NCBI GenBank assembly: GCA_015062235.1
Contig: SUUZ01000003.1
Location: 94,736 to 158,735, forward strand
Direction of reading: 5' to 3'
Length of the DNA stretch: 64,000 bases
From: Alphaproteobacteria bacterium
GTDB lineage: Bacteria > Pseudomonadota > Alphaproteobacteria > RF32 > CAG-239
Shown here: in pieces, positions 7,144 to 64,000 of the stretch
How positions within the stretch are numbered: the stretch's first letter is position 1
How the letters are laid out: the number at the start of each line of letters is the position of its first letter
Program-made: the position numbers and the translations under genes
The notes under the pieces: generated by a model
The model's database searches: none
Seen by the model: the letters and a program-made list of their open reading frames with translations, nothing else
Told to the model about the DNA's origin: nothing

Positions 7144-7887
7144 TCAAACACTTTTCTTTATTGTTGCAACAATTTGAACCACCGCTGAAACAACAAAACT
7201 TACAATCAATAAAAATGAGAACAACATCACACTTACAAAGTATACCCAAGCTTCAGGATATACCAACATAACAGGACGAGCAATAGTCGAAGCCCATCCG
7301 TCTAAAGTAAATACTTGAAGCAAAGTAAATATAGCTGCTCCTAAATTACCAAATATCGAAAAAGTTTCACCATAAAGACTAACTGCAATTATCCCAAAGA
7401 CATAAAAAGATACAATAAATATAACCAAAAAAGAAATAAAAGCTGGTAACAACTCAATAAATACTTGTACTAAGTTATTCATTTTGGAAAAACGATTTAC
7501 ATATTTAAACAACCTAAACAGACGAAATGTTCTCAATACAATAAATGCACTCATAACAGGCAGTGATGAAACAACAACTATAACCAGATCAAAAACATTC
7601 CATCCTGATTTAAAAAATTTTCCTTTTAAGGCAAAAATTTTCAAAAACATTTCCGCCATAAAAATTCCCATAAAAACCCTATCTAACAAAAACAACCCAT
7701 TATCAAAATAAAATTCCATTGTTGGCGAAGTCATCAAACCTAAAATAACAGCATTAGCCAAAATAACTGCCATTATGAACATATCAAAACTAAAACCTGT
7801 TACTAATTTCGCCAACCTGCGTTGATCATCGTTATAATATAGCGATGATATAATTTTCTTTGATGATGACTTATTTTTTTCAACCAT
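7144..7887 (-). CDS. Single-domain voltage-gated cation channel (NaChBac/BacNav family)
   Basis: Six TM segments. The S4 voltage sensor 'LRTFRLFRLFKYVNRF' has R/K at every third position. The pore region 'FTLLQVFTLDGWASTIARPVM' aligns with NaChBac 'TLESWAS'. The start ATG at 7887 follows a GAGGAG ribosome-binding site. Confidence 0.75.
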   Translation of the reverse strand: MVEKNKSSSKKIISSLYYNDDQRRLAKLVTGFSFDMFIMAVILANAVILGLMTSPTMEFYFDNGLFLLDRVFMGIFMAEMFLKIFALKGKFFKSGWNVFDLVIVVVSSLPVMSAFIVLRTFRLFRLFKYVNRFSKMNNLVQVFIELLPAFISFLVIFIVSFYVFGIIAVSLYGETFSIFGNLGAAIFTLLQVFTLDGWASTIARPVMLVYPEAWVYFVSVMLFSFLLIVSFVVSAVVQIVATIKKSV

Positions 7888-7928
7888 ATTATCTCTCCTC
7901 AAGTTTCAAACATCCACATCATTCTAAA

Positions 7929-8594
7929 CTAAAACAACCAGAATGCAACAACAATTCCTGACAAAGCTATCATAGGACCAAATGCTAACACAGATTTCTT
8001 TCTAATCAAACTATACACAATTCCTAAAACAGATGCCAAAACAATCACATAAAGAAGCCCTTCAACTCCCAACCAAGCTCCAAGAGCTGACAACAGCTTA
8101 ATATCTCCACCTCCAAAAGCATCTTTATTACGCCAAACAATCAAAAGACTAACTAACACAGGTAAAAAATAACCAATAAACGCTCCTATCGCACTTTCAT
8201 TAAAAGCAACAAATCCCATATTTAAACTTGAGGCCAAAAAACCCAATAAAAGCAATGGAACAGTCAGTATATCTGGTAATAAAAATATTCTAAAATCAAT
8301 TTCTGCCATAAGTAACAAAAGCCATATATACATAGCTATAAATCCAAAACCATGTACCCCAAAATGTATATACGCTAAATAAGTAATTATAGCAAAAGCA
8401 AAAGCTTCAACTATTGAGCGCCAAACAAGCTTTTTATACAATTTATTACGTCTGTATAAACTAACTTTTTTAGTTGGACGAAAAATCTCAAACAATGCAC
8501 CTGCAAAAGTTGCAGGCATAAATTTAGCAAATCTTCTTGCAGTATAAGGAGTAAACAAACCAAAAATAAGAGCCAGTAAAATATAAAACACCAT
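7929..8594 (-). CDS. Prepilin peptidase (A24 family, PilD/CpaA-like)
   Basis: Polytopic membrane protein with a 'GGGDIKLL' motif. ATG at 8594 follows a GGAGAG ribosome-binding site. Confidence 0.6.
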   Translation of the reverse strand: MVFYILLALIFGLFTPYTARRFAKFMPATFAGALFEIFRPTKKVSLYRRNKLYKKLVWRSIVEAFAFAIITYLAYIHFGVHGFGFIAMYIWLLLLMAEIDFRIFLLPDILTVPLLLLGFLASSLNMGFVAFNESAIGAFIGYFLPVLVSLLIVWRNKDAFGGGDIKLLSALGAWLGVEGLLYVIVLASVLGIVYSLIRKKSVLAFGPMIALSGIVVAFWLF

Positions 8595-8681
8595 CGATTC
8601 TCTCCACTTTACATTCAAATACTAGCCTCAAAACAATAAAAATTAATTAAAGTTCTCTAAAATCCAATAGGTGCAAGATTT

Positions 8682-10196
8682 TTATTTATGAACATTTTTA
8701 CCATAAAGCATCCAGTCATATATTTTTGATTTTTTCCTAACGCTAATATCCATATCTTCAACAGTCATCTTACCTTCTGTCAAAGTAGGAATATCTGAAA
8801 ATAATGATGTTCCCAACCCCAACCTATGACCATCAATCTTTGCTCCTAAACTCTCTATTATAGTGGGATAAATATCAAAAGGCGTAAAAATACGATTCTT
8901 TTCATTAATTGCAGCGACAGGGGAATTCATAAAAATATTTATAGGTTTTCTATCCATTTCTTTTGTAAATCTTTGGTTCATTGTTAAATGGTCTCCCAAC
9001 ACCACAACAACACTATCTTTATAAAAATCTTGTTCTTTCAACCATTCAATAAAATTTGCAATCTGTTTATCCGAACACGACACTACATTTTCTATATTAT
9101 TATGCATCCCAAATCTACGCTCACACACATCATCTGCAAAACGATACGTTCCATAATGTGTATCAAGTGTCATCATTGTAAAAACGAATGGTTTTTTTTG
9201 AGAGCTTAAAAATTTTAATTCCTCTTTAGCATAATCAAAAACCTGTCTATCTGGAAATTTAGTGGTCTTCTCAAAAGACAGCTCTATTCCATCTCTTTCC
9301 GCATAAAAATTTGTATCAAGCAATTTTTGTTGCCCATGTGTTTCAACAAATTTATCCATTGCAGCAAATTCACCATTAGAACCAATCAAAGATGTTAGAT
9401 TATATCCTTGCTCTTTCAAAATATCGTACAAACACCACGCCTTAGGGAAAAAGCCCTCTTTGGGATGAAACCAATTAGGATCATTTATTGGTAATTGTAT
9501 CGGTGCACCACACGTTTGAGCAAATAATCCTGCCTGTGTCCACTGTGTACCATCAATTTGATAAGAACCTCCAATATATTCATTATCACTAAATGAAATA
9601 TTTTCTTTTGCTAATTTATGTAACTCCTCTATCAAATCAGCTCCAAAATAATTATGTTTAGGAGTTACGGCATAGGTTGCTTCCATGGATTCTGCAAAAA
9701 TTAATATCAAATTTCTTTTTTGAATAGGAAATGTTATTTTTGCATCCTGTGGTATAATATAATTTTCTTCATAAAAATTAGATGTTTCGCTCTTATATTT
9801 ATGAAAGGTAATCATATTCCACACATTCATCTTAAAGAAGACAAAAACAATACAAAAAATAAACCACCCCAAACTTATTAAACATCTGTGCTTATAAACC
9901 CAAGCTCTAAAAACATCTATAATTTTGATATGAATCCGATATTTACAACAAAAAAACAATGCCAGCAACAAGGTAATAATAAGTCCCGTCATTACTGTAT
10001 TTTTCAAATAACTCATCACTATACGTATTTCTGAAGAAAATGGCATATTCAGATGAAACATAATTTGTTCATATGTTACTTCCCCAAATTTTCTCACAAT
10101 CCAATTTGCTGACGAAAACAGCATATAACCAATAAAAAATACCAATAATGCTACCATCAACATTCTCCATATCACTCTAAAATTAGTTGTAGCCAT
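8682..10196 (-). CDS. Sulfatase-family membrane protein (LTA-synthase/phosphoglycerol- or phosphoethanolamine-transferase-like)
   Basis: N-terminal TM helices are followed by a sulfatase-like domain ('LILIFAESMEATY', 'VVVLGDH'). The start is uncertain: ATG at 10196 or TTG at 10223. Confidence 0.55.
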   Translation of the reverse strand: MATTNFRVIWRMLMVALLVFFIGYMLFSSANWIVRKFGEVTYEQIMFHLNMPFSSEIRIVMSYLKNTVMTGLIITLLLALFFCCKYRIHIKIIDVFRAWVYKHRCLISLGWFIFCIVFVFFKMNVWNMITFHKYKSETSNFYEENYIIPQDAKITFPIQKRNLILIFAESMEATYAVTPKHNYFGADLIEELHKLAKENISFSDNEYIGGSYQIDGTQWTQAGLFAQTCGAPIQLPINDPNWFHPKEGFFPKAWCLYDILKEQGYNLTSLIGSNGEFAAMDKFVETHGQQKLLDTNFYAERDGIELSFEKTTKFPDRQVFDYAKEELKFLSSQKKPFVFTMMTLDTHYGTYRFADDVCERRFGMHNNIENVVSCSDKQIANFIEWLKEQDFYKDSVVVVLGDHLTMNQRFTKEMDRKPINIFMNSPVAAINEKNRIFTPFDIYPTIIESLGAKIDGHRLGLGTSLFSDIPTLTEGKMTVEDMDISVRKKSKIYDWMLYGKNVHK

Positions 10197-10318
10197 ACCA
10201 CAATAAAGACCATAACGCAACAATTTTCAAAAAAATAGTGTACAAAAATTTTATATGTTGCTTTAACAATTTATAATGATATATTCGCAACATTATTTAA
10301 ATAGTATAGGAGTAAAAG

Positions 10319-10927
10319 ATGATTGAAGGATTTGAATGGAAACAATTTTTAGGTGCTTTCTTTGTATTATTTGCTATTATTGATATGCCAGGTTCAATTC
10401 CTCTCATCATTTCCTTACGCAAAAGAGGAAAAATAGTTCGCCCAGTAAAAACTGCTGTCTTAGCATTTATTATGTTTTTAATATTCTACTACGTTGGAGA
10501 GGCCTTTTTAAATTTATTCGGCGTTGATACTGCTTCTTTCGCTGTTGCTGGCTCTTTAATAATATTCGTTATGGCGTGTGAAATGATTTTAGATATTTCA
10601 ATATTCAAAGAAGCTGAAGACACTCCTAAAGATTCTAGTTTCTTTCCTGTTGTTTTTCCTTTAATAGCTGGCGCTGGAGCATTAACAACTATGCTTGCGA
10701 TACGTACACAGTTCAACCAAATAAGTCTACTTTCTGCTATTGCTGCTAACATGCTTTGCGTTTTTGCAATTTTACGTCTAACTGAAAAAATTGAAAAATT
10801 GCTAAGTGCTGGAATGCTCTATATGTTAAAAAAATTTTTTGGAATAATTCTTCTTGCTATTTCAATAAAATTATTTACTAGCAATATAACCTTATTAATT
10901 GAAAAATTTATATCTCATACTAACTAG
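10319..10927 (+). CDS. marC: MarC-family (UPF0056) integral membrane protein
   Basis: 'FFVLFAIIDMPGSIPL' N-terminal signature; six TM helices. Confidence 0.7.
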   Translation: MIEGFEWKQFLGAFFVLFAIIDMPGSIPLIISLRKRGKIVRPVKTAVLAFIMFLIFYYVGEAFLNLFGVDTASFAVAGSLIIFVMACEMILDISIFKEAEDTPKDSSFFPVVFPLIAGAGALTTMLAIRTQFNQISLLSAIAANMLCVFAILRLTEKIEKLLSAGMLYMLKKFFGIILLAISIKLFTSNITLLIEKFISHTN

Positions 10928-10935
10928 TTTCTCAA

Positions 10936-11637
10936 TTAAAAATCAGAAATAAGTCCATGTTCTGCAAAAGAAAAATAATTTGATGGTGTAATTATAATAT
11001 GCTCATGAAGCATTATGTCTGCAGCCTCGCAAGCCTTTCTCACTCTTTTAGTTACCTCAATATCATTAGTCGATGGACGTGAATCTCCTGACGGATGATT
11101 GTGAACCATGATCACTCCAACAGCATTATTAGATAACGCTTTTGCCACTACATCTCGATGATGAATACATACCGACGACACACTTCCTCGTTGTAATATT
11201 TCATTACCTATAACCCGTAATTTTGCATCAACATATATAATTCTAAACTCTTCCACATCGCTATATGCCATTGAACAGCGACAATATTCAAGTAAAACAT
11301 CCATTGTTGCAATTATGGGAGTATCATCAAAAGCCAAATTCTGCCAAGATAGTTTCTGCGCAGCAAATTCTATAAATTTTATCAGTATTGCGGTATTATC
11401 TTTTATCCCTTTAACATCTGTTAGTTTACTTATTGGCGCAGACACAACTTTTGCAAAAGAACCAAATTTTCTAATCAATACCTTTGCCAAAGGTTTAACA
11501 TCTTTCCTTGGTAATGCATAAGTCAGAAGCATTTCTAAAGCTTCATAATCAGCCATATCGCTACCTAACGACCTTAAAAAACGTTCTCTTAATCTTTGAC
11601 GATGTCCAACATAATCATGGTTTTCTTTTTCCATCAT
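10936..11637 (-). CDS. radC: RadC-family JAB/MPN domain protein
   Basis: 'HNHPSGDSRPSTNDIEVTKR' is the JAMM-like motif of the RadC/UPF0758 family. Confidence 0.85.
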   Translation of the reverse strand: MMEKENHDYVGHRQRLRERFLRSLGSDMADYEALEMLLTYALPRKDVKPLAKVLIRKFGSFAKVVSAPISKLTDVKGIKDNTAILIKFIEFAAQKLSWQNLAFDDTPIIATMDVLLEYCRCSMAYSDVEEFRIIYVDAKLRVIGNEILQRGSVSSVCIHHRDVVAKALSNNAVGVIMVHNHPSGDSRPSTNDIEVTKRVRKACEAADIMLHEHIIITPSNYFSFAEHGLISDF

Positions 11638-11643
11638 TAATTC

Positions 11644-12453
11644 CTACTTTTTCATATATGGAGGACAATCCAATCCCAAAGGAGAATACGTAAACACCTC
11701 AAAACCATCTTTGGTAACTGCCAATGAATGTTCAAACTGAGCTGACAAAGATCTATCTTTTGTAACAGCTGTCCAACCATTAGCTAAAATTGTTGCTTCT
11801 TTCTTACCAAAATTTATCATAGGCTCTATTGTAAAAAACATCCCCTCTTCCAACCTTGCCCCTGTACCTTTTTTACCACAATGCATAACATTAGGTTCAT
11901 CATGAAAAACTCTACCCAATCCATGTCCACAAAACATGTCTACAACTGAATACCCATAATGATGAGCAACCTCTTCTATAACAGCACCTATATCACCAAA
12001 ATAAGCTCCAGGTTTAACAGCTTCGATTCCTCGCATCATACATTCATATGTAACATCGCAAAGTCTTTTAGCCTTAATTGAAGGTTTCCCAGCACAATAC
12101 ATTCTAGATGTATCGCCATACCATCCGTCAACTATTACTGTCACATCAATATTTAATATATCTCCATTAAGAAGCTTGCGTTCTGGCAAAGGAATACCAT
12201 GACATATCTCATGATTAATAGAAATACACGTACTCTTAGGATAGCCTCTATACCCTAAACATGCTGGTACAGCACCGTGTTCTAAAATAAACTTACGACA
12301 TAAATCATCCAAATATTCCGTAGAAACACCAACGTCTACATAAGATGTTATATAATCCAAACACTCAGCTGCTAACTTTCCAGCCTTTCGCATTCCTTCA
12401 AAATCATTGACATCACTATGAATAACTATGCCTTCTTCATTTATCTTGTCCAC
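11644..12453 (-). CDS. map: Methionine aminopeptidase type I
   Basis: Pita-bread fold metal-ligand pattern (D…D…H…E…E); 'CLGYRGYPKSTCISINHEICHGIP'. Confidence 0.9.
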   Translation of the reverse strand: MDKINEEGIVIHSDVNDFEGMRKAGKLAAECLDYITSYVDVGVSTEYLDDLCRKFILEHGAVPACLGYRGYPKSTCISINHEICHGIPLPERKLLNGDILNIDVTVIVDGWYGDTSRMYCAGKPSIKAKRLCDVTYECMMRGIEAVKPGAYFGDIGAVIEEVAHHYGYSVVDMFCGHGLGRVFHDEPNVMHCGKKGTGARLEEGMFFTIEPMINFGKKEATILANGWTAVTKDRSLSAQFEHSLAVTKDGFEVFTYSPLGLDCPPYMKK

Positions 12454-18458: not shown

Positions 18459-18698
18459 ATGGTATCTGTTGTTAGTGATGCTTGTGTAAAATGCAAATCT
18501 TGCGTTGAGGTTTGCCCTGTTGATGCTTTTCGTGAAGCTGAAAACATGCTAGTTATTGATCCAGATGTTTGCATCGACTGTGGTGTTTGCATCTCAGAAT
18601 GTCCTCAAGAAGCTATTAGCTCAGAGGATGAGGCTGATGAAAAATGGATTAAATATGCTCAAGAAAACGCTAAAAATTTGCCAAATGCAAATGAGTAA
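18459..18698 (+). CDS. Ferredoxin with two [4Fe-4S] clusters
   Basis: Two CxxCxxCxxxCP motifs ([12 protein letters not shown] and [12 protein letters not shown]); acidic C-terminus. Confidence 0.85.
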
Positions 18699-41141: not shown

Positions 41142-41711
41142 ATGCAAAAAGAAACAACTCGTAAATGTATTGTAACAGGACAAATTTTAGATAAATCGGC
41201 TTTGTTGCGTTTTACTACATTGCCCGACAATACCGTTGTTCCCGATTTTAAAAAAAAGCTACCAAACAAAGGAATTTATGTAACCAACTCTAAGTCTTTG
41301 CTAGAAAAAGCTGTTAATACCAATATGTTTGCCAAATCATTAAAAATTAAAGCAAAAGCAACCTTAGCGCTGGTTGATCAAGTATCTTTCTTACTTTACA
41401 AACAGGCTCTAAATTCTATATCACTAGCTCGTAAAGCTGGAGCTATGGTTAGTGGTATGGATAAAGTAAAAGAAGCTTTAAAAAAAAATAGCGTTGCTTT
41501 TCTTTTAGAAGCAAGTGACGCAGGAAATGATGGACATAGTAAAATTGTATCTATGGCTCAACATGTTGAAATTTTTAATTTGTTTACAATTGAGGAGTTA
41601 GACAAAGAATTAGCAAAAGAAAACACAGTTCATATCGCTTTTATCAAAGGTAAAATGGCTAATACGGTAAAAGAAAGTTTTAAACGTCTAGCCTCATTCA
41701 TAAACAACTAA
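41142..41711 (+). CDS. ylxR: YlxR (DUF448)/ribosomal L7Ae-like fusion protein
   Basis: 'RKCIVTGQILDKSALLRF' is a YlxR motif, followed by an L7Ae-like C-terminal half. The nusA-infB location is typical. Confidence 0.75.
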   Translation: MQKETTRKCIVTGQILDKSALLRFTTLPDNTVVPDFKKKLPNKGIYVTNSKSLLEKAVNTNMFAKSLKIKAKATLALVDQVSFLLYKQALNSISLARKAGAMVSGMDKVKEALKKNSVAFLLEASDAGNDGHSKIVSMAQHVEIFNLFTIEELDKELAKENTVHIAFIKGKMANTVKESFKRLASFINN

Positions 41712-48739: not shown

Positions 48740-49501
48740 ATGTCAAAATTTTCCCACATTTTAATCACTGGAGCATCATCAGGTATCGGGGAAGCTCTAG
48801 CTTTACACTATGCCTCAAAAGGAACAAAACTTTTATCTATTTGTGGTCGAAACGAAGAACGTTTAGAAATTGTTGCTAAAATATGTCGTCAAAAAGGATG
48901 TGAAGTTGAAACCAAAATATTGGATGTAACAAATAAAGAAGATGTTCATAATTGGATTATCGAAAGCAATAAAAAAATGCCTTTAAACCTGGTATTTGCA
49001 AATGCTGGTGTTGCTACCCTACAAGAAACTACTGAAAATGTTCACCGAACATTTAACATTAACGTAATGGGAATTGTAAATACCATACTACCCACTATTG
49101 AAATATTTAAACAAGCCCCATTATCCCAAACAAAACACATTGCTATAACATCATCCATAGCAGGATATCATGGAATGCCAACATGTCCTTCCTATTCAGC
49201 ATCTAAAGCTTGTATCAAAGCTTGGGGGGAAGGACTGCGCTTAAACTTAAAGGATAGCGGAATTAATGTTTCAACTATATGTCCTGGATTCGTGCGTTCT
49301 CGCATAACAGATAAAAATACATGCCCTATGCCTTTTTTTATGGAAGCTGATAAAGCTGCTCAAATTATCGCCTCTAACATAGAAAAAAACATCGGATTAA
49401 TTTCCTTTCCTTGGCAAATGCGCTTTGCTACTTGGCTAGGATCTATATTACCTAATCGTATAAGTGATTTTATTTATTCAAAACTTCCTTATAAAGTCTA
49501 G
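48740..49501 (+). CDS. SDR-family oxidoreductase
   Basis: 'ILITGASSGIGEALA' Rossmann motif and a YxxxK catalytic dyad. Confidence 0.8.
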   Translation: MSKFSHILITGASSGIGEALALHYASKGTKLLSICGRNEERLEIVAKICRQKGCEVETKILDVTNKEDVHNWIIESNKKMPLNLVFANAGVATLQETTENVHRTFNINVMGIVNTILPTIEIFKQAPLSQTKHIAITSSIAGYHGMPTCPSYSASKACIKAWGEGLRLNLKDSGINVSTICPGFVRSRITDKNTCPMPFFMEADKAAQIIASNIEKNIGLISFPWQMRFATWLGSILPNRISDFIYSKLPYKV

Positions 49502-50760
49502 TAAACGTTTATAGCCCTAGCTCTAATAAGATACCACAAAATTAACAACCCTGGCAATGCCATCAAGGTTGTTACCACAAAAAACCACTGCCAAGAAAGT
49601 GTAATAGCTACAAAACCTGAAGTAGCTGCAAATAAATCTCTTGCTGCCCCCATAAATGATGATAACAAAGCATATTGTGTTGCCGTATATTTTCTATTAC
49701 ATAATGCTGATAAATACGCTACAAATGCTGCTGTCCCCATTCCTCCAGAAATATTTTCAACAAAAATATTAAACATTAAAATCTCAACATTATTCCCAGC
49801 ATAAAATTGCCCCACATAAACAAGGTTAGATAACCCCTGTAAAAATCCACAAACAACTAATGAACGAACCAAACCTACTCTTTTTACAACAACACCACCT
49901 ACTAATGTTCCAATAATTGTCGCCACTACTCCATATATCTTAATAATTGAAGCAATCTGAATCTTAGTAAAACCTATATCATCAAAAAAGGGATAAGCCA
50001 TTGGCGCAACATACGCATCACTCATACGATAAAAAAAGATAAATAATAGAATAAATACCCATTTATCTCTTTTCATAAAATCCGAAAAAGGTTTTACTAC
50101 AGCATTTACAATGGTTGCTCGCAAGGTATAAGGATGAGATGCTTTATTGTTTTTTGGCTCTTGAGAAAACATTATCGTAACAAGTCCCACTAGCACACCC
50201 AAAGCCATAATTTGATAAACATACGCCCAACTTAATAACGTTGCTAAAAATAAAGCTCCAGCACCTGAAAACAAAGTACCAAACCGATACCCTAAAACAA
50301 ACACCGCTACAGCTGCTGCCTGCTCCTTAGACTTGAATTTCTCAATACGATAAGCATCCAAAACTATATCTTGAGACGCAGAAAAAAGAGCCGTTAAAAA
50401 TACCCAAACAACAAAAAGTATCGGAGAAACTTTAGGACTGGTTATAGACATAAAAAATAACGACACAATAAGCAAAATCTGTAAAAATACAGCCCACCCA
50501 CGCCTGCGTCCTAATTTCGAAAAAAAAGGTAAAGAAAATTGATCTATAACTGGTGAAACCAACCACTTAAAACTATACGGAGCTTTAACTATAGAAAATA
50601 ATCCTATAGTAACTAGCGATATACCAGCATCTTTTAGCCACAAAGATAATGTCGAAGACACTAACAAAAACGGCAACCCTGACACAAACCCCAACAACAA
50701 CATAACCAACATTCTTTTGTCGGCATAAATTTTTAATGATCTAATCCATTTTAAAAACAC
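49498..50760 (-). CDS. ampG: AmpG-family muropeptide MFS permease
   Basis: 12-TM MFS; 'LLGFVSGLPFLLVSSTLSLWLKDAGISL' is an AmpG-like N-terminus. Confidence 0.75.
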   Translation of the reverse strand: MFLKWIRSLKIYADKRMLVMLLLGFVSGLPFLLVSSTLSLWLKDAGISLVTIGLFSIVKAPYSFKWLVSPVIDQFSLPFFSKLGRRRGWAVFLQILLIVSLFFMSITSPKVSPILFVVWVFLTALFSASQDIVLDAYRIEKFKSKEQAAAVAVFVLGYRFGTLFSGAGALFLATLLSWAYVYQIMALGVLVGLVTIMFSQEPKNNKASHPYTLRATIVNAVVKPFSDFMKRDKWVFILLFIFFYRMSDAYVAPMAYPFFDDIGFTKIQIASIIKIYGVVATIIGTLVGGVVVKRVGLVRSLVVCGFLQGLSNLVYVGQFYAGNNVEILMFNIFVENISGGMGTAAFVAYLSALCNRKYTATQYALLSSFMGAARDLFAATSGFVAITLSWQWFFVVTTLMALPGLLILWYLIRARAINVY

Positions 50761-50825
50761 ACATATCTCCTATAGTAATGTCTCTAACATAAAACAAAAT
50801 AAATAAAATTTAATTAAAAAAACAA

Positions 50826-50848
50826 CCTCCAATAAAAATATTGGAGAT
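50826..50848 (-). terminator. Rho-independent terminator of the hydrogenase operon
   Basis: CTCCAATA-aaaa-TATTGGAG perfect 8-bp stem. On the minus strand it is followed by GTTGTTTTTTT. Confidence 0.65.
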
Positions 50849-50870
50849 TGCTTTTTCGCTTCAATCAAAA

Positions 50871-52634
50871 TCATTTATAAAGATTTCTTTGACGATATTT
50901 AGTATGCAACAACTCATGAGACTTACCCTCCCCTGGTTGCCCCAAAAATTCCGTATAAACTTGCTTAACCTCTTCATTATGATGAGATAAACGATTCTTC
51001 GCTTTTTCATCTTCACAATTTAACCCCAAGGAACGTTTTTTACGAATTTCATCAGTAATACCCCACGGTTTTGGTAAATTGTGCATCATAACTTTAGGCT
51101 GCCCACCTCCAGCAATGCACCCTCCAGGACAAGCCATAACTTCTATAAAATGATAAGGTAAATCTTCACCAGCATCATGGGCAGTTTTAATTTCAGCCAT
51201 AATATCCTCTACGTTACCAACACCATTAACAACAGCTATACGGATTTTAGTACCATTAATATCTACTTCAGCAACTTTAACACCTTCAAGCCCTTCAATA
51301 GCCTCAAAATTCAAATTTCCTAGCTCTTCTCCTGTGATATAAAAATATGCAGTACGTAAAGCCGCCGTCATCACACCGCCAGTAACACCAAAGATGGTAG
51401 CTGCACCAGAATATTCTCCCAACGGGCTGTCAGCAGGTTCTTCCTTCAATGACTTAAAGTTAATACCTGCTTGGCGAATCATTTTAGCTAACTCACGAGT
51501 AGTCAAAACAACATCAACATCTTGATATCCTGATGATGACATAGATTCATGACGTCTCACTTCCCATTTTTTAGCTGTACAAGGCATAATCGATACAACC
51601 TTAATCTTTGATGCATCCACACCAATTTTTTGAGCATAATATGTTTTTGCCAAAGCACCAACCATCTGGTGAGGAGATTTACAAGATGACAAGTTCGACA
51701 AATTTTCTGGATAGTATTTTTCAATATAATCTACCCATGCTGGACAACAAGATGTGAACATTGGCAAATTATCATTAGCTGTAAAGCGTTTTACAAATTC
51801 ACTTGCTTCTTCAATAATTGTCAAATCAGCACCAAAATTTGTATCAAACACCTTGTTAAAACCAAGACGTCTCAAAGCGGCATAGATTTTTTCGGTCAAG
51901 TTTGCACCAAAATCATAACCAAATTCTTCACCCAAAGCCACTCTAACTGCTGGAGCAATTTGTACAACTGTAATTGTTTCTTTATCCTTTATCATATCCC
52001 ACACTTTTTGTGTTTCATCATATTCTACAATTGCTCCTGTAGGACAATGAGCAGCACATTGTCCACACTTAATACAAGGGGTATCTGCTAACTTTGCATC
52101 ATTTGCCCCTGTTATTTTTGTTGCAAGTCCTCTATTAAGATAACTCAGAGCCCAAACATTTTGAATATTCTGACAAATATCTACACAACGTCCACAAACG
52201 ATACACTTAGCAGGATCAAGAACAACCGCCTGAGTTGAAACATCAAGCTCCTCTTCATCAACTATTTTTTCAATTTCATCCCTATCAATTCCTATTTGCA
52301 TAGCCATATCTTGCAGCTCACATTGTCCATTTCTAGCACATTGTAAACAATGATTTGGATGATTACTTAAAATAAGCTCTAAAACCGTTTTTCTTGTTTC
52401 ACGCAACTCTACATCATTGGTAATAACTTCCATACCCTCACTAACAGGAGTACAACAAGAACGCATAATTCTTCCACCAACTTTAACTATACACATTCCA
52501 CATCCTGCAGACGGATCAACATCTGGATGTTTACATAAAGTAGGTATATCTACATTAGCACTACGAGCAGCATCCAAAATACTAGTACCTGCTTCAACTT
52601 CAACTTCTACATCATCTATTTTAAGCTTCACCAT
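50871..52634 (-). CDS. hydA: [FeFe]-hydrogenase catalytic subunit (HydA/HndD-type, M3 architecture)
   Basis: All three H-cluster motifs are present: L1 'FTSCCPAWV', L2 'MPCTAKKWE', L3 'EVMACPGGCIAGGGQP'. The N-terminus has a [2Fe-2S] ferredoxin-like domain, a His-ligated 'HPNHCLQCARNGQC' cluster and two 4Fe-4S motifs (CIVCGRCVDIC, CIKCGQCAAHCP). There is a C-terminal small-subunit-like extension. The start (MVKLK) follows a GAGGAG ribosome-binding site. Confidence 0.9.
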   Translation of the reverse strand: MVKLKIDDVEVEVEAGTSILDAARSANVDIPTLCKHPDVDPSAGCGMCIVKVGGRIMRSCCTPVSEGMEVITNDVELRETRKTVLELILSNHPNHCLQCARNGQCELQDMAMQIGIDRDEIEKIVDEEELDVSTQAVVLDPAKCIVCGRCVDICQNIQNVWALSYLNRGLATKITGANDAKLADTPCIKCGQCAAHCPTGAIVEYDETQKVWDMIKDKETITVVQIAPAVRVALGEEFGYDFGANLTEKIYAALRRLGFNKVFDTNFGADLTIIEEASEFVKRFTANDNLPMFTSCCPAWVDYIEKYYPENLSNLSSCKSPHQMVGALAKTYYAQKIGVDASKIKVVSIMPCTAKKWEVRRHESMSSSGYQDVDVVLTTRELAKMIRQAGINFKSLKEEPADSPLGEYSGAATIFGVTGGVMTAALRTAYFYITGEELGNLNFEAIEGLEGVKVAEVDINGTKIRIAVVNGVGNVEDIMAEIKTAHDAGEDLPYHFIEVMACPGGCIAGGGQPKVMMHNLPKPWGITDEIRKKRSLGLNCEDEKAKNRLSHHNEEVKQVYTEFLGQPGEGKSHELLHTKYRQRNLYK

Positions 52635-52635
52635 A

Positions 52636-54309
52636 CTATTTCTCCTCTGCATCAACTAATTTATCTAAATACTCATTCTCATAGAAATTCAAAGTAGACA
52701 ATACTGGATTAGGAGCAGTCTGCCCAAGTCCGCAAAGCGACGCTTTTTTCATAGCCGAAGCAATTCTCTTCAGTTGTTCCAAATCAGCTTTTGTACCCTT
52801 ACCTTTATTAATCTTATCTAACAAATTGAGCATTTGTTTTCCGCCGATTCTACAAGGAGAACATTTACCACAAGATTCATCAACAGTAAAATCTAAATAG
52901 AACTTGGCTAAAGATACCATATCAGATGAATCATCAATAACTATCATACCGCCAGATCCCATAATTGAGCCAACTTTTTTTAGTTCTTCATAACATACTG
53001 GCATATCCATATAATCTTTAGGAATAACTCCTCCTGATGGTCCTCCTGTTTGCACAGCTTTTAATTTTTTACCATTAGAAACACCACCACCGATTTCATT
53101 AACGATTTCGTTAATTGTAGTACCCATCGGAACCTCAATCAAACCGGAGTGTTCAACCTGACCGGTCAAAGCAAAAACTTTGGTACCTTTAGATGTTTCT
53201 GTACCGAAAGATGCAAACCAATCAGCACCTTTAAGCAAAATTTTTGACACATTTGCCAAAGTTTCAACATTGTTAACACAAGAGGGCTTATCCCACAAAC
53301 CTTTGTTTGTCGGATAAGGAGGTCTTGGTCTCGGAGTACCTCTGGCGCCTTCAATTGAGTGAATCAAAGCAGTTTCTTCACCGCAAACAAACGCACCGGC
53401 ACCAAGTCTGATATCAATATTAAAGCAGAAATCCGTTCCCATAATATTGTTACCGAGTAAGCGATTCTTTTTACAAGCTTTAATAGCTTTTTCCAATCTT
53501 TCGACAGCCAAAGGATATTCGGCACGAACATAGAACCATCCTTCTGTTGCTCCGATTGCATAAGCAGCAATCATCATACCTTCAATAACGGCGTGCGGAT
53601 CGCCTTCCAAGATTGAACGATCCATATAAGCACCGGGATCACCTTCGTCGCCGTTACAAATTATGAATTTTTCATCCACTGTTGGAACTTTAGCTGCCAA
53701 CTCCCATTTCATACCAGTAGAAAAACCACCACCGCCACGACCTCGCAAGCCTGACTTTTTAATTTCATCAACAACTTCGGCTGGCGTCATATTTTTCAAA
53801 GCTTTTTCCAAAGCTAAATAACCACCTCGAGCCATATATTCCTGAATATCTTCTGGATCCATATGTCCAGCATTTTTTAATACAACTTTCTCTTGCTTAG
53901 TAAAAAATGGCAAATCTAAAGACAAAACATATTTTTTAAGCTCTTCAGGAACACCATTAACTCCTTTAGTATTCAGTGCTGGCTCAACATATTTTTCCAT
54001 TATATCTTTAACAGCTTTTAAATCTAAACGCTTAAATAAAACATCTTTTTTACCTTTAATTTCTACTCTAATCAATGGTCCTTGAGCACAAAGCCCCATA
54101 CAGCCTGTAGCAACAACTCTGACTTTATCTTCAATCTGTTTTTCCACAATAAAGTTTTTTATCAAATCTAAAATGTCATCGCTACCTGAAGACTTACATC
54201 CTGTAGAATGGCAACAATATATACTACATTCAAATCTTTCTATTTCAGCCAGTTTATTTTTTGCCTGTTCATGAATATCAAATCTTTTATCTAAATCCAT
54301 ATCGACCAT
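52636..54309 (-). CDS. hydB: NuoF-like NAD(P)H-binding flavoprotein subunit of the hydrogenase (HydB/HndC-like)
   Basis: N-terminal thioredoxin-like [2Fe-2S] domain (CCHSTGC…C…C). Core carries 'SGLRGRGGGGFSTGMKWE', 'FICNGDEGDPGAYMDRSILEGDPH' (FMN/NADH sites) and 'ESCGKCSPCRIGG' (4Fe-4S). GAGGAG ribosome-binding site before ATG at 54309. Confidence 0.88.
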   Translation of the reverse strand: MVDMDLDKRFDIHEQAKNKLAEIERFECSIYCCHSTGCKSSGSDDILDLIKNFIVEKQIEDKVRVVATGCMGLCAQGPLIRVEIKGKKDVLFKRLDLKAVKDIMEKYVEPALNTKGVNGVPEELKKYVLSLDLPFFTKQEKVVLKNAGHMDPEDIQEYMARGGYLALEKALKNMTPAEVVDEIKKSGLRGRGGGGFSTGMKWELAAKVPTVDEKFIICNGDEGDPGAYMDRSILEGDPHAVIEGMMIAAYAIGATEGWFYVRAEYPLAVERLEKAIKACKKNRLLGNNIMGTDFCFNIDIRLGAGAFVCGEETALIHSIEGARGTPRPRPPYPTNKGLWDKPSCVNNVETLANVSKILLKGADWFASFGTETSKGTKVFALTGQVEHSGLIEVPMGTTINEIVNEIGGGVSNGKKLKAVQTGGPSGGVIPKDYMDMPVCYEELKKVGSIMGSGGMIVIDDSSDMVSLAKFYLDFTVDESCGKCSPCRIGGKQMLNLLDKINKGKGTKADLEQLKRIASAMKKASLCGLGQTAPNPVLSTLNFYENEYLDKLVDAEEK

Positions 54310-54310
54310 A

Positions 54311-54784
54311 TTAGTTCTCCTCAAAAGCTTTACGCCATTCATTCAAAATAACAGGAACATCATCTGGTGTAACACGTCCATATGTTTTACCATTTACTAC
54401 ACACACTGGAGCCAAACCACAACAACCAACACAACGAACACTCTGTAAATGAAACATTTTATCAGCAGTGCTTTCCCCTTCATTAACACCTAATTCTTCT
54501 TTAAATTTTTCCAAAACTTTATCATTACCTTTAAGATAGCAAGCAGTACCTGTACAAACAGAAATAACTGCTTTACCAGGAGCTTCTAATTTGAAAAAAT
54601 TGTAAAAAGTCAAAACCTCATAGATTCTAGCCAGAGGTATTCCCATACCTTGAGCCACATCAACAGCATCTTGCCAATCAATATATCCCTTAACCCCTTG
54701 AATTTCATGCAAAGCCATAATCAAAGAACCACGTTTTTTACGCCATTTATTAGCAACTTGCGTGGCCTGAGAAACATCAACCAT
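54311..54784 (-). CDS. hydC: NuoE-like [2Fe-2S] thioredoxin-fold subunit of the hydrogenase (HydC/HndA-like)
   Basis: 'VCTGTACYLKG…CVGCCGLAPV' four-Cys NuoE/24-kDa motif. The stop abuts the hydB start. Confidence 0.85.
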   Translation of the reverse strand: MVDVSQATQVANKWRKKRGSLIMALHEIQGVKGYIDWQDAVDVAQGMGIPLARIYEVLTFYNFFKLEAPGKAVISVCTGTACYLKGNDKVLEKFKEELGVNEGESTADKMFHLQSVRCVGCCGLAPVCVVNGKTYGRVTPDDVPVILNEWRKAFEEN

Positions 54785-54955
54785 ACTTTATCTCCTTGTT
54801 ATAGTCTGTTCACTGTTTGAAAGGGTAAAGCAAAAAAATATCAACTGCAAGCAGATTCGATGAAACCCCCAAAAATTTATTTTGACAATCCACAAAAAAT
54901 CGGCCATTTAATAAATAAGTTTAAATATAAAACAAAATGGTTATAATCCTTTGCT

Positions 54956-62863: not shown

Positions 62864-64000
62864 CTAAAATTTATATTTAGCGTTCAACATACCTGTATGG
62901 TCTTGATAGTCTTCACGGAATTTACCTTCGTAACCAACAGTAATTTCAATTTTTTCATTTACATCAGCTGAAATTCCTGCACCGAATTCAAATCCTAATC
63001 TATCAAGTCCTTCACCTTCAACAGTATAAGCTGAACCATTTGCTAATGTTACAACAGAACTATTATCTGCATCTATAACATCATATGTCAAAGCAGCTCT
63101 TACTTCAGGTTTCAATACTGTTCCGTTTTCAAGTTCCCAGTTTCTTGTTGCTTTTGCACCTACAACAGCTGTTACAACATCTAAATCATCAGATGATATA
63201 TTTTGACCTGCTGTATCTGTATAACTGTCTTGTTTTACATGAACATATCTTAAACCTGCTTCAGGTATAACTTTATAATCTTTATATTCTGTTTCATAAC
63301 CTGCCATTGCTTGTAAACCAAATGTTTCTGCATCATAATCAGCATTTACGTTTACACCTGCAACATTTTTATTTTCAGAATAATCAGACCAACCATATGA
63401 CATCATACCATTTACATACCAATTACTTGGTTTGTATTCACCATAAAGTGCCAATATATGAGTATCAACATCAGTTGTTCTCATAAATCCATCAACATCA
63501 GTTTTTGTATATGCATAGGCAATACCAGCTTTAACATCATCCTTAACAATTTTTTCCAAACCAAATGCTAAACCTTCTGAATCTGCATCAAAGCCATTTT
63601 CTGTATCAAGTTTTGATTTGTTGAACAGGCCTTTAACCCACATTGCTGCTTTTTCAAATACATTATCACCTGATGACATACCATTACCAGAAGAAGCCAA
63701 AGAACCTCCCGACATACGAGATGAAATAGCAGAGAATACTTGGCTCAATGTTGATGTTTGAACTTGTTGAACCATTGGATTAACTTCTGGAGCCAATGCT
63801 GTTGCCGCATCAATAGCTGCAGATGGGTTTGTTTGAGCCAATGAGGTAATTTCTTTAGCAACACTATCAAATGTTGTATTGCCTGTATCTCCACCTGTTA
63901 TTACAGCAGCAATTGTTCCTGCTTGATTTGAGTTTGCACCAATTGATGAAGCAATTTCACCTGCTGATTTTGTTTCAAATGTGAGTGCGTTTTTAGTTTT
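62864..64000 (-). CDS. Autotransporter-type outer-membrane protein (beta-barrel domain complete; passenger region runs off the window end)
   Basis: The frame stays open to position 64000 (…ITGGDTGNTTFDSVAKEITSL…). The C-terminal beta-barrel ends in '…LNAKYKF' with a terminal aromatic residue. Confidence 0.6.
   Translation of the reverse strand, partial: KTKNALTFETKSAGEIASSIGANSNQAGTIAAVITGGDTGNTTFDSVAKEITSLAQTNPSAAIDAATALAPEVNPMVQQVQTSTLSQVFSAISSRMSGGSLASSGNGMSSGDNVFEKAAMWVKGLFNKSKLDTENGFDADSEGLAFGLEKIVKDDVKAGIAYAYTKTDVDGFMRTTDVDTHILALYGEYKPSNWYVNGMMSYGWSDYSENKNVAGVNVNADYDAETFGLQAMAGYETEYKDYKVIPEAGLRYVHVKQDSYTDTAGQNISSDDLDVVTAVVGAKATRNWELENGTVLKPEVRAALTYDVIDADNSSVVTLANGSAYTVEGEGLDRLGFEFGAGISADVNEKIEITVGYEGKFREDYQDHTGMLNAKYKF

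Follow-up and report, generated by a model that had tools for sequence, protein, structure and literature searches.

The window considered here is the whole of a 64,000-nucleotide stretch of DNA from an alphaproteobacterium of the order RF32 (assembly GCA_015062235.1, contig SUUZ01000003.1, positions 94,736 to 158,735). Its list of open reading frames (ORFs), together with Pfam and NCBIfam matches, places hydC, hydB and hydA in a tight co-directional operon on the minus strand (Table 1). Judged by sequence, the operon encodes a heterotrimeric group A [FeFe] hydrogenase of the HydABC type, with one NuoE-like and one NuoF-like subunit. The occurrence of [FeFe] hydrogenases with such partners in Alphaproteobacteria is known already, both from the literature and from public annotation. 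What is added here is that the flavoprotein subunit, HydB, is non-canonical. The architecture of HydB does not justify the label "bifurcating".

The operon and its products

The identity of the catalytic subunit is clear. HydA contains Fer2_4, NADH-G_4Fe-4S_3, two Fer4, Fe_hyd_lg_C (335 bits) and Fe_hyd_SSU domains, and it scores above the cut-offs of two family models (TIGR02512, 518 bits against a cut-off of 406; NF040763, 789.7 bits against 765). Its top phmmer match in the PDB is T. kivui HydA1 (E 3e-173). The H-cluster motifs expected of a group A HydA (L1 TSCCP, L2 MPCxxK and L3 ExMACxxGCxxGGGQP) are represented by TSCCPAW at residue 294, MPCTAKKWE at residue 350 and EVMACPGGCIAGGGQP at residue 498, with all four ligand cysteines there. 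The relay ligands are also complete, including those of A1 (C34...), the His-ligated A4 (H92; HxxxCxxCx5C) and A2/A3 (C144, C187). A first-pass annotation of this DNA had proposed a trimeric operon of this kind with L1, L2 and L3 intact, which the Pfam, NCBIfam and motif results bear out. It had also named missing H-cluster cysteines as grounds for abandoning the idea. They are not missing, and the L1, L2 and L3 cysteines and all iron-sulfur ligands of HydA are invariant in 120 of 120 homologues. HydC is equally recognizable. It matches PF01257 (2Fe-2S_thioredx) with 157 bits and carries the C1 ligands as Cx4C...Cx3C from residue 77.

One peculiarity of HydA is a 10-residue insertion, PKVMMHNLPK, at residues ~514-523, directly after the GGGQ of L3. 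It is found neither in three outgroup lineages nor in T. kivui HydA1. The near-constant length of HydA (587-588 aa) in related gut bacteria, the gut clade described below, suggests that the insertion is common to that clade.

Database names are of little help here. The HydA sequence is identical to NCBI MBE6443754.1 ("MAG: Alphaproteobacteria bacterium", MAG being a metagenome-assembled genome), which has the product name '2Fe-2S iron-sulfur cluster binding domain-containing protein'. JGI calls close relatives 'NADH-quinone oxidoreductase subunit G'. These names omit the hydrogenase, which is therefore under-annotated in some public records. Conversely, the NCBIfam name "NADH-dependent, group A6" was rejected as proof of NADH-only function and is not used as evidence, because it describes a HydA clade and not a tested property of this type of HydB.

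The three genes are packed tightly, as the first-pass annotation had said, but their stops and starts do not strictly abut. A single base separates TAA from the hydB ATG and another separates the hydB TAG from the hydA ATG. Independent gene calls on public contigs put the hydB start at ATG 54309 rather than 54342 and the hydA start at ATG 52634. The ribosome-binding site (RBS) GAGGAG, which had been ascribed to each gene, precedes hydB and hydA, whereas hydC has AAGGAGA. The operon had been taken to begin at 50826 because of the terminator hairpin at 50857-50816; the segment 50826-50870 is noncoding and holds that hairpin. At the other end, no sigma-70-like promoter was detected on the minus strand of the divergent hydC/lptF region at the threshold used, and the promoter-like matches within that region are all directed towards lptF.

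Table 1. Features at and around the hydrogenase operon, with positions in the window.
Feature	Positions	Strand	Description
hydC	54311..54784	-	NuoE/HoxE-like thioredoxin-fold [2Fe-2S] subunit, 157 aa, cluster C1
hydB	52636..54309	-	NuoF-like flavoprotein, 557 aa; N-terminal Trx-like [2Fe-2S] (B5), flavin mononucleotide (FMN)/NADH site, B1 [4Fe-4S]; without Zn/B2 and B3/B4
hydA	50871..52634	-	M3-type group A [FeFe] hydrogenase catalytic subunit, 587 aa, with fused small-subunit-like tail
Intrinsic terminator, hairpin and T-run	50816..50857	-	19-pair stem, 14 nt past the hydA stop; scores on the opposite strand too
Divergent intergenic region hydC/lptF	54785..54955	.	171 bp; presumed site of the hyd promoter
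Free-standing 2x[4Fe-4S] ferredoxin	18459..18698	+	79 aa, two CxxCxxCxxxCP motifs; outside the operon

HydB and its missing ferredoxin branch

HydB matches Complex1_51K (153 bits) and NADH_4Fe-4S (105 bits), and it has an SLBB match of 26.2 bits, which is just below the cut-off of 27. Its PDB matches are to Bfu-type chains (E 1e-198 to 1e-159) and to NuoF/NDUFV1 (E 1e-116 to 1e-80). The BfuB subunit has been defined by an FMN domain (IPR011538), an SLBB domain (IPR019554), a NuoF 4Fe-4S domain (IPR019575) and a ferredoxin-type domain (IPR017896), and BfuC by IPR002023 (Schut 2022). The FMN, SLBB and NuoF 4Fe-4S features and B5 are all found in HydB, and HydC provides the BfuC feature with its C1 cluster. 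The ferredoxin-type domain, which holds B3 and B4, is not in HydB. There is no Fer4 match and no CxxCxxCxxxC motif.

The extent of the loss can be read from structural references. Alignments of HydB end at residues 549-553 of 557, and the reference chains run ~70 residues further (7t2r_B, A. mobile NiFe-HydB; 7q4v_B, A. woodii; 8a6t_B, T. kivui; 9n5u_B, NfnB; 9bov_B; 7p5h_B, T. maritima). The missing C-terminal tail is the ferredoxin-like domain holding the [4Fe-4S] clusters B3 and B4. The B2 site has gone as well. In A. mobile this Zn/B2 "hinge" is ligated by C438, C476, H525, C531 and C536, and the C476 position can be C or T (Feng 2022; Schut 2022). HydB has D463, N501 and K550 aligned with C438, C476 and H525. 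It stops 7 residues past the H525 equivalent, which leaves the last two ligand positions at or beyond its C-terminus. HydB has thus lost the Zn/B2 ligands, all five of them, together with its C-terminal 2x[4Fe-4S] domain. The first-pass annotation had matched the operon to the bifurcating HydABC of Thermotoga and to Hnd. That match fails at HydB, because B3/B4 and the Zn/B2 ligands are features of every characterised bifurcating [FeFe] HydABC.

This is an uncommon state. The B2 histidine is missing in just 8 of 1558 BfuB sequences (Schut 2022). Nevertheless, B2-B4 are lost in 19 of the 19 gut clade members, which have D, then N or S, then K at the three alignable positions and a stop 7-11 residues later. 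The Sphaerochaeta outgroup HydB (52% identity, 595 aa) retains C/T/H, KKCPxGxC and two CxxCxxCxxxC motifs, and has Fer4 domains by Pfam.

What if an adjacent small gene supplied the ferredoxin domain in trans? There is no evidence that one does. The operon itself has no space for the lost domain, because only one base lies between the hydB stop and the hydA start, and neither the window nor any of 18 relatives has a small ferredoxin-like ORF adjoining the operon.

Residues as well as clusters have been used to sort these flavoproteins. In the scheme of Losey 2020, bifurcating subunits have A or E at Tm232, M at Tm234, F at Tm367 and GGPSG in the SLBB region (the A/M/F/GGPSG signature). The non-bifurcating type of S. 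wolfei and S. aciditrophicus has T/S, K/S/A and Y at Tm232, Tm234 and Tm367 respectively and is without GGPSG. HydB shows none of these last four features. Its accessory clusters also differ from the S. wolfei-type state in part, with B2, B3 and B4 absent and B5 present. HydB descends from the bifurcating (Bfu-type) lineage, from which it differs by loss of the canonical ferredoxin branch.

Other short HydB proteins

How widespread are such proteins? An exhaustive HMMER search covered 1.84 billion representatives, and the best 150 HydB homologues were classified. Among these 150, almost all HydBs with the A/M/F/GGPSG signature retain the C..C/T..H and CPxxxC ligands, and most also have the double-ferredoxin tail. 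The combination of signature, B2 loss and no tail was found only in P0121 and P0123. Both lie within hydC-hydB-hydA operons, in genomes of 67% and 58% GC respectively, and in both operons the catalytic cysteines of HydA are intact.

P0121 (565 aa) is 60% identical to HydB and is probably the representative of the 50% identity cluster that includes the gut clade. Its own locus (ENA ERZ10759792 and ERZ10759738, our L065 and L066), with hydCBA at L065:7499-11471 and 67% GC, belongs to a third lineage. The HydA there has variant L1 (TTCCPSW) and L2 (MPCTSKKYE) motifs. P0123 (656 aa) is stranger. It has a duplicated N-terminal region without the B5 cysteine pattern and has no B2-B4, yet A/M/F/GGPSG is kept. 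The motifs are thus not proof of bifurcation, because P0123 keeps them without B5. It is encoded at 7500-11743 of locus L067 (GCA_036681025.1, JAXDEL010413173.1), in a 58% GC bacterial contig. The contig numbers of that assembly exceed 413,000, and it is possibly a eukaryote-scale assembly with bacterial passengers.

In a neighbour-joining tree, which has no bootstrap support, P0121 and P0123 group with the gut clade, and this single group is nested among lineages that have B2 and a ferredoxin tail, beside a Sphaerochaeta-containing branch. A Hox-like group that is also without the C-terminal domain stands apart in the same tree. This weakly suggests one ancestral loss of the C-terminal domain, independent of that in Hox. 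By its sequence features, then, HydB is a rare trimmed derivative, outside both the defining features of Bfu and the S. wolfei-type residue criteria.

Host clade and conservation

The host belongs to a group with a recognizable habitat. RF32 Alphaproteobacteria have reduced genomes (~1.6 Mb) and are typical uncultured members of the ruminant gut (Xie et al. 2021). When one genome per GTDB species was scanned, ~19 MAG species of Alphaproteobacteria proved to have a HydA at 76-96% identity, after which the next matches were Sphaerochaeta/Spirochaetales (53-54%) and Firmicutes (43-44%). More than 120 protein clusters (90% identity) are at least 75% identical to HydA. The exact HydA sequence is on 16 contigs of up to 417 kb, and the exact HydC is in 57 blocks of the public collection, with JGI samples of goat faeces and a MAG project on the ruminant gastrointestinal tract among them. 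Named sources of the relatives include sheep colon, rumen and roe deer omasum, in addition to goat, deer and other gut-type metagenomes.

The operon has kept its place in these genomes, which range from 33% to 47% GC. In nearly all relatives hydCBA is directly beside lptF-lptD-surA-rsmA. HydB is 84-97% identical among them, HydC 80-96% and HydA 76-96%, whereas the adjoining LptD and LptF are 66-79% identical, excepting the near-conspecific L020. The G+C content at third codon positions (GC3) is 0.21 for hydA, 0.26 for hydB and 0.20 for hydC, against 0.17-0.28 for core genes of the window, and synonymous-codon distances fall within the core range. The conserved synteny, high identity and host-like codon usage indicate that the operon is old, vertically inherited and strongly constrained in this clade. 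Recent horizontal acquisition, which the first-pass annotation had raised, is rejected by GC3, codon distance and synteny across relatives of different GC content.

Several other expectations about the host can be revisited on the same grounds. An AT-rich alphaproteobacterial host had been proposed and is corroborated. A Firmicute or Thermotogae contaminant is excluded, because many MAGs show the operon in synteny with lptF/lptD/surA, on contigs that reach 417 kb. The idea that such an operon is rare does not survive. It is near-universal in the gut/rumen clade, and a cluster of this kind was published in 2016. Nor was evidence found for a protist endosymbiont or a hydrogenosome-relevant lineage; the sequence turns up repeatedly in gut-type metagenomes, those of goat, sheep, deer and rumen among them.

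The two sides of the operon behave differently. Upstream, lptF-lptD-surA-rsmA is missing only from L017 and L019, which are the most distant of the complete loci. Downstream of the hydA terminator the gene varies (L005-L021 compared with window 49498-50870) and can be ampG, a DEAD helicase with a ferredoxin and pfkB, an infB block or an rsmB block. With the upstream side so stable, the hydA 3' end looks to be a recurrent rearrangement breakpoint.

Ferredoxin, additional hydrogenases and neighbouring genes

The free-standing ferredoxin of the window has its own RBS and terminator hairpin and scores 64.3 bits against FdxA_fam, for which the cut-off is 65. In loci L005 and L006 the same gene is ~2 kb downstream of hydA. 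It is a candidate low-potential redox partner for the hydrogenase, one that would fit ferredoxin-independent and Hox-like models alike.

More distant members of the clade have additional hydrogenases. In L019 (12500-16563) and L023 (1526-8573), hydCBA is followed by genes for a monomeric [FeFe] hydrogenase of group B (TIGR04105, 510 bits) and for AdhE (1379 bits). In L023 there is also a paralogue of the HydS-like, sensory [FeFe] type, as well as a gene whose match to SpoIIE (PP2C-type phosphatase) is very weak (E 2e-6). This layout recalls the H2-sensing regulation of Ruminococcus albus.

Elsewhere in the window, a YlxR-L7Ae fusion had been noted between nusA and infB (41142-41711, plus strand, 189 aa). 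The YlxR part is sound (residues 7-74). The L7Ae part is plausible but not established, the C-terminal 114 aa having a sub-threshold match (E 0.023, 14.8 bits against a cut-off of 22.1). At the left end, 283-2666 encodes a GIY-YIG protein and an AAA_21 ATPase, and just past the edge (L063:11064-20864) come genes for two DNA methylases, for a NOV_C protein and for an HTH_3 regulator. This gene set looks like a restriction-modification or mobile island. At the right end, an autotransporter beta-domain protein (62864-63841, minus strand; L064:6966-9918; 654 aa on the full contig) adjoins a resolvase gene just outside the window.

How might the enzyme work?

The reading we favour is that the product of hydCBA is a functional [FeFe] hydrogenase, heterotrimeric, soluble, NAD(H)-linked and long resident in this lineage, that would act as a ferredoxin-independent, non-bifurcating NADH:H+ oxidoreductase. 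We regard the arguments for and against this as evenly poised. That the hydrogenase is functional is strongly, if indirectly, indicated by the invariance of its motifs in 120 of 120 homologues and by its proteins being more conserved than neighbouring housekeeping genes. As for the mechanism, NADH would pass hydride to the FMN of HydB. Single electrons would then travel from B1 through the HydA relay (A1/A2/A3) to the H-cluster, where protons would be reduced to H2. C1 and B5 would be side clusters off the main path. Because such a path does without C1 and B5, ferredoxin-independent and non-bifurcating operation would be most likely. H2 evolution would be possible only while hydrogen consumers in the gut hold H2 low, and the reaction would otherwise be reversible. 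Reduced ferredoxin from pyruvate:ferredoxin oxidoreductase (PFOR) would have to be handled by other enzymes, for example the monomeric group B hydrogenase that some relatives encode next to hydCBA.

The main support comes from the domain that is missing. Every bifurcating [FeFe] HydABC so far characterised has the B3/B4 domain, which the non-bifurcating NAD+-dependent ones are without (Furlan 2022). B3/B4 form the route to ferredoxin (Feng 2022), and ferredoxin has been visualised docked on this domain (Xiao 2025). A ferredoxin-type domain belongs to the definition of BfuB (Schut 2022), and subtypes without B3/B4 have been predicted to be non-bifurcating (Zheng & Huang 2024). There are also enzymes that do what is proposed here. 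NADH alone is used to make H2 by the S. wolfei and S. aciditrophicus enzymes and by the hydrogenosomal complex of the rumen fungus C. churrovis (Losey 2020 for the bacterial ones). By analogy, then, the precedent is that all characterised [FeFe] complexes without the C-terminal ferredoxin domain are non-bifurcating. Other outlets for ferredoxin in relatives count in favour of this reading too, namely the group B hydrogenase with AdhE beside hydCBA in L019 and L023 and the PFO and second hydrogenase type of related MAGs (Degli Esposti et al. 2016), and P0123 shows that the A/M/F/GGPSG signature can survive where no low-potential branch is left.

A number of observations do not fit so well and weigh against NADH-only operation. 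To begin with, gut H2 may often be too high for H2 evolution from NADH alone. The characterised non-bifurcating [FeFe] enzymes have a different HydB clade (T/S, K/S/A, Y), which makes them analogues and not close relatives. HydB retains the A/M/F/GGPSG signature as A227 and M229 (DEGDPGAYMD), F307 (GAGAFVCGEE) and GGPSG at 422, and all of these are invariant across the clade. These residues separate all characterised bifurcating beta subunits from non-bifurcating ones and have been rated more diagnostic than cluster content (Losey 2020). B5 has also been retained. Its four N-terminal [2Fe-2S] cysteines are present, and within the clade neither the B5 nor the C1 cysteines vary. In T. kivui, deletion of the B5 N-terminal domain abolishes bifurcation, according to work cited with Xiao 2025. 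Synechocystis HoxEFUYH, whose diaphorase has the same cofactors and motifs, is reported to need strictly both NADH and reduced ferredoxin to make H2 (June 2026 preprint). Finally, the genome encodes a low-potential ferredoxin.

A different kind of objection concerns the maturases. Neither hydE, hydF nor hydG was found in the window, in the 10 kb past either edge or in the flanks of ~19 relatives. The screen looked for radical-SAM CxxxCxxC motifs and P-loops in the window and in 27 loci (L005-L031) from alphaproteobacterial relatives, Spirochaetota and Firmicutes. It excludes hydE and hydG from the window and its 10 kb flanks because there is no radical-SAM ORF there, and it bears out the remark in the first-pass annotation that the window has no hydE, hydF or hydG. 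Four genes 3' of hydA in L010, L012, L016 and L021 (453, 354, 304 and 421 aa) had the sizes of hydG, hydE and hydF and were considered as such. They were rejected, as NCBIfam identifies them as rsmB, a panE-like reductase and two unassigned ORFs.

What if the retained parts are the ones that matter? In this scenario, which we think less probable but serious, the enzyme would perform a minimal Hox-like confurcation or bifurcation. NADH and reduced ferredoxin would be coupled to H2 via an FMN-C1-B5 branch, with ferredoxin docking transiently near HydC and the N-terminal domain of HydB. Confurcation would permit H2 release at higher gut H2 levels. The cofactors and motifs match those of HoxF and HoxE, which likewise have no C-terminal ferredoxin domain and do have an N-terminal [2Fe-2S] cluster, AFM, F and GGPSG. 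H2 evolution by HoxEFUYH strictly needs both donors, with E1/F2 (the equivalents of C1/B5) as the low-potential branch (2026 preprint). The invariant A/M/F/GGPSG signature, the strict conservation of B5 and C1 cysteines and the 2x[4Fe-4S] ferredoxin of the window all count in its favour too. In addition, B5 is essential for bifurcation in T. kivui whereas the Zn/B2 site is dispensable, as reported with Xiao 2025. There are also observations that do not fit. The Hox result comes from an unreviewed preprint on a [NiFe] enzyme in which the ferredoxin site was not visualised. The C-terminal domain would have been lost independently in the gut clade and the Hox-like group, and P0128, a representative of the latter, retains the C/T/H and CPxxxC Zn/B2 ligands of which HydB has none. 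P0123 keeps the motifs without B5, and B3/B4 are present in every [FeFe] HydABC shown to bifurcate. The more specific proposal that this is the first [FeFe] hydrogenase to confurcate NADH and ferredoxin with a minimal HydBC core (FMN, B1, C1 and B5 only) is one we consider possible but less likely than not.

Direction is a separate matter. Perhaps the physiological role is H2 uptake, with gut H2 oxidised to NADH (with or without ferredoxin) for biosynthesis or for anaerobic or microaerobic respiration. H2:NAD+ oxidoreduction is exergonic at gut H2 partial pressures, nothing in the window fixes the direction, and non-bifurcating HydAB does reduce NAD+ with H2. HoxEFUYH takes up H2 slowly with NAD+ alone (2026 preprint). 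We nevertheless think this role improbable. Relatives pair the operon with fermentative genes (the group B hydrogenase, AdhE and the HydS-like sensor), and related MAGs carry pyruvate:ferredoxin oxidoreductase (there called PFO) and ferredoxin, which are typical of H2-evolving fermenters (Degli Esposti et al. 2016). The small size of RF32 genomes (Xie et al. 2021) speaks against it as well, and no respiratory genes were seen in the window.

It is very unlikely that the enzyme is a canonical Thermotoga- or Hnd-type bifurcating HydABC that obtains its ferredoxin-binding domain from elsewhere, for example from a fourth subunit. The subunit order and HydA architecture are those of group A3 operons, HydA passes NF040763 and the best PDB matches are bifurcating enzymes. 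However, the single base between hydB and hydA leaves no room for the domain, and the sole dicluster ferredoxin of the window is monocistronic and 32 kb off, with none adjoining the operon there or in 18 relatives. The Zn/B2 hinge ligands are all replaced, and the IPR017896 domain of BfuB is not there.

An artefact (a contaminant contig, a decaying pseudogene cluster or an assembly truncation) would be compatible with a MAG source and with the lack of maturase genes in the 84 kb examined, but it is scarcely credible given host-like codon usage, flanking Gram-negative envelope genes and catalytic motifs invariant in 120 of 120 homologues, and contamination and assembly truncation are rejected because the same arrangement has been assembled independently from many samples (contigs reach 417 kb), by synteny and by the identical HydB end point in 19 species.

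Why the distinction matters

Surveys of rumen and gut H2 metabolism in the style of HydDB class hydrogenases by catalytic subunit and operon layout. Such a procedure, which is also the one behind the first-pass annotation, would label this enzyme "group A3, bifurcating", although HydB is without the elements that current cryo-EM studies identify with the ferredoxin branch. If the enzyme is NADH-only, then H2-flux models for an abundant gut/rumen lineage use the wrong parameters. If confurcation persists, the enzyme offers a minimal construct made by nature, from which mechanistic enzymologists can learn which parts of the Bfu core are truly required. Minimal confurcation would mean that [FeFe] enzymes can achieve Bfu-type bifurcation without the C-terminal ferredoxin domain. 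Within Alphaproteobacteria it would also provide a stepwise series from full HydB through the gut clade to P0123, also without B5, towards the simple NuoE/F-HydA modules of hydrogenosomes. An alphaproteobacterial [FeFe] hydrogenase with NuoE/F-like partners has by itself no bearing on mitochondrial or hydrogenosomal origins.

Comparison with known systems

The electron-bifurcating HydABC enzymes of T. maritima, T. kivui and A. woodii (Bfu type 1; HydDB group A3) are like the one described here in their hydC-hydB-hydA order, M3 HydA, FMN, B1, B5, C1 and A/M/F/GGPSG signature. They differ in that HydB here is without the B3/B4 domain and the Zn/B2 ligands. Compared with T. maritima, HydA here is also without the C-terminal A5 domain and has the 10-residue insertion after L3.

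The nearest published description concerns the same kind of organism and cluster. The human-gut MAGs Acetobacter sp. CAG:977 as well as Azospirillum sp. CAG:239 possess a long M3 [FeFe] hydrogenase encoded in one cluster with homologues of NuoE and NuoF, "resembling the hymABC operon" (Degli Esposti et al. 2016). They also carry HydE/F/G, PFO, a short ferredoxin and a second type of hydrogenase, and relevance to the mitochondrial ancestor was argued (Degli Esposti et al. 2016). Those clusters may fall within the same HydA/HydB clade as the one described here; that study did not analyse HydB cluster content or bifurcation capacity. Hydrogenase trees are unresolved with respect to a link between eukaryotes and Alphaproteobacteria, and caution has been urged (Leger et al. 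2016).

Hydrogenosomes offer a looser parallel. In Trichomonas and Caecomyces churrovis (HydA with NuoE/NuoF), and in the fused N. ovalis hydrogenase, an [FeFe] hydrogenase is likewise coupled to 24-/51-kDa-like subunits. The hydrogenosomal NuoE/F are orthologues of complex I's 24 kDa and 51 kDa subunits (Degli Esposti et al. 2016). A match to such complex I-related modules had been suggested for this operon, but HydB has an extra N-terminal 2Fe-2S domain and is far closer to Bfu-type HydB (E ~1e-198) than to NuoF.

The multimeric [FeFe] enzymes of the S. wolfei and S. aciditrophicus type also have a NuoF-like flavoprotein without B3/B4 and B2, and they are the probable functional analogue. 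However, their HydBs are also without B5 and have T/S, K/S/A, Y and no GGPSG, whereas HydB here has A, M, F, GGPSG and B5. The lineages are different. A similar contrast applies to the subtype II BfuABC of Hydrogenedentota, Acidobacteriota and others, in which BfuB is without B3/B4 and is predicted to be non-bifurcating (Zheng & Huang 2024). Subtype II is also without B5, whereas here B5 is kept and B2 is lost.

That leaves the cyanobacterial HoxEF diaphorase. Its cofactor layout is the same, with an N-terminal [2Fe-2S] cluster, FMN, one [4Fe-4S] cluster, no C-terminal ferredoxin domain, AFM/F/GGPSG and a NuoE-like [2Fe-2S] partner. It is wired via HoxU to a [NiFe] module and not to an [FeFe] HydA, and bifurcation by Hox has been reported only in the 2026 preprint. 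Nevertheless, HoxEF is the closest architectural match to HydB.

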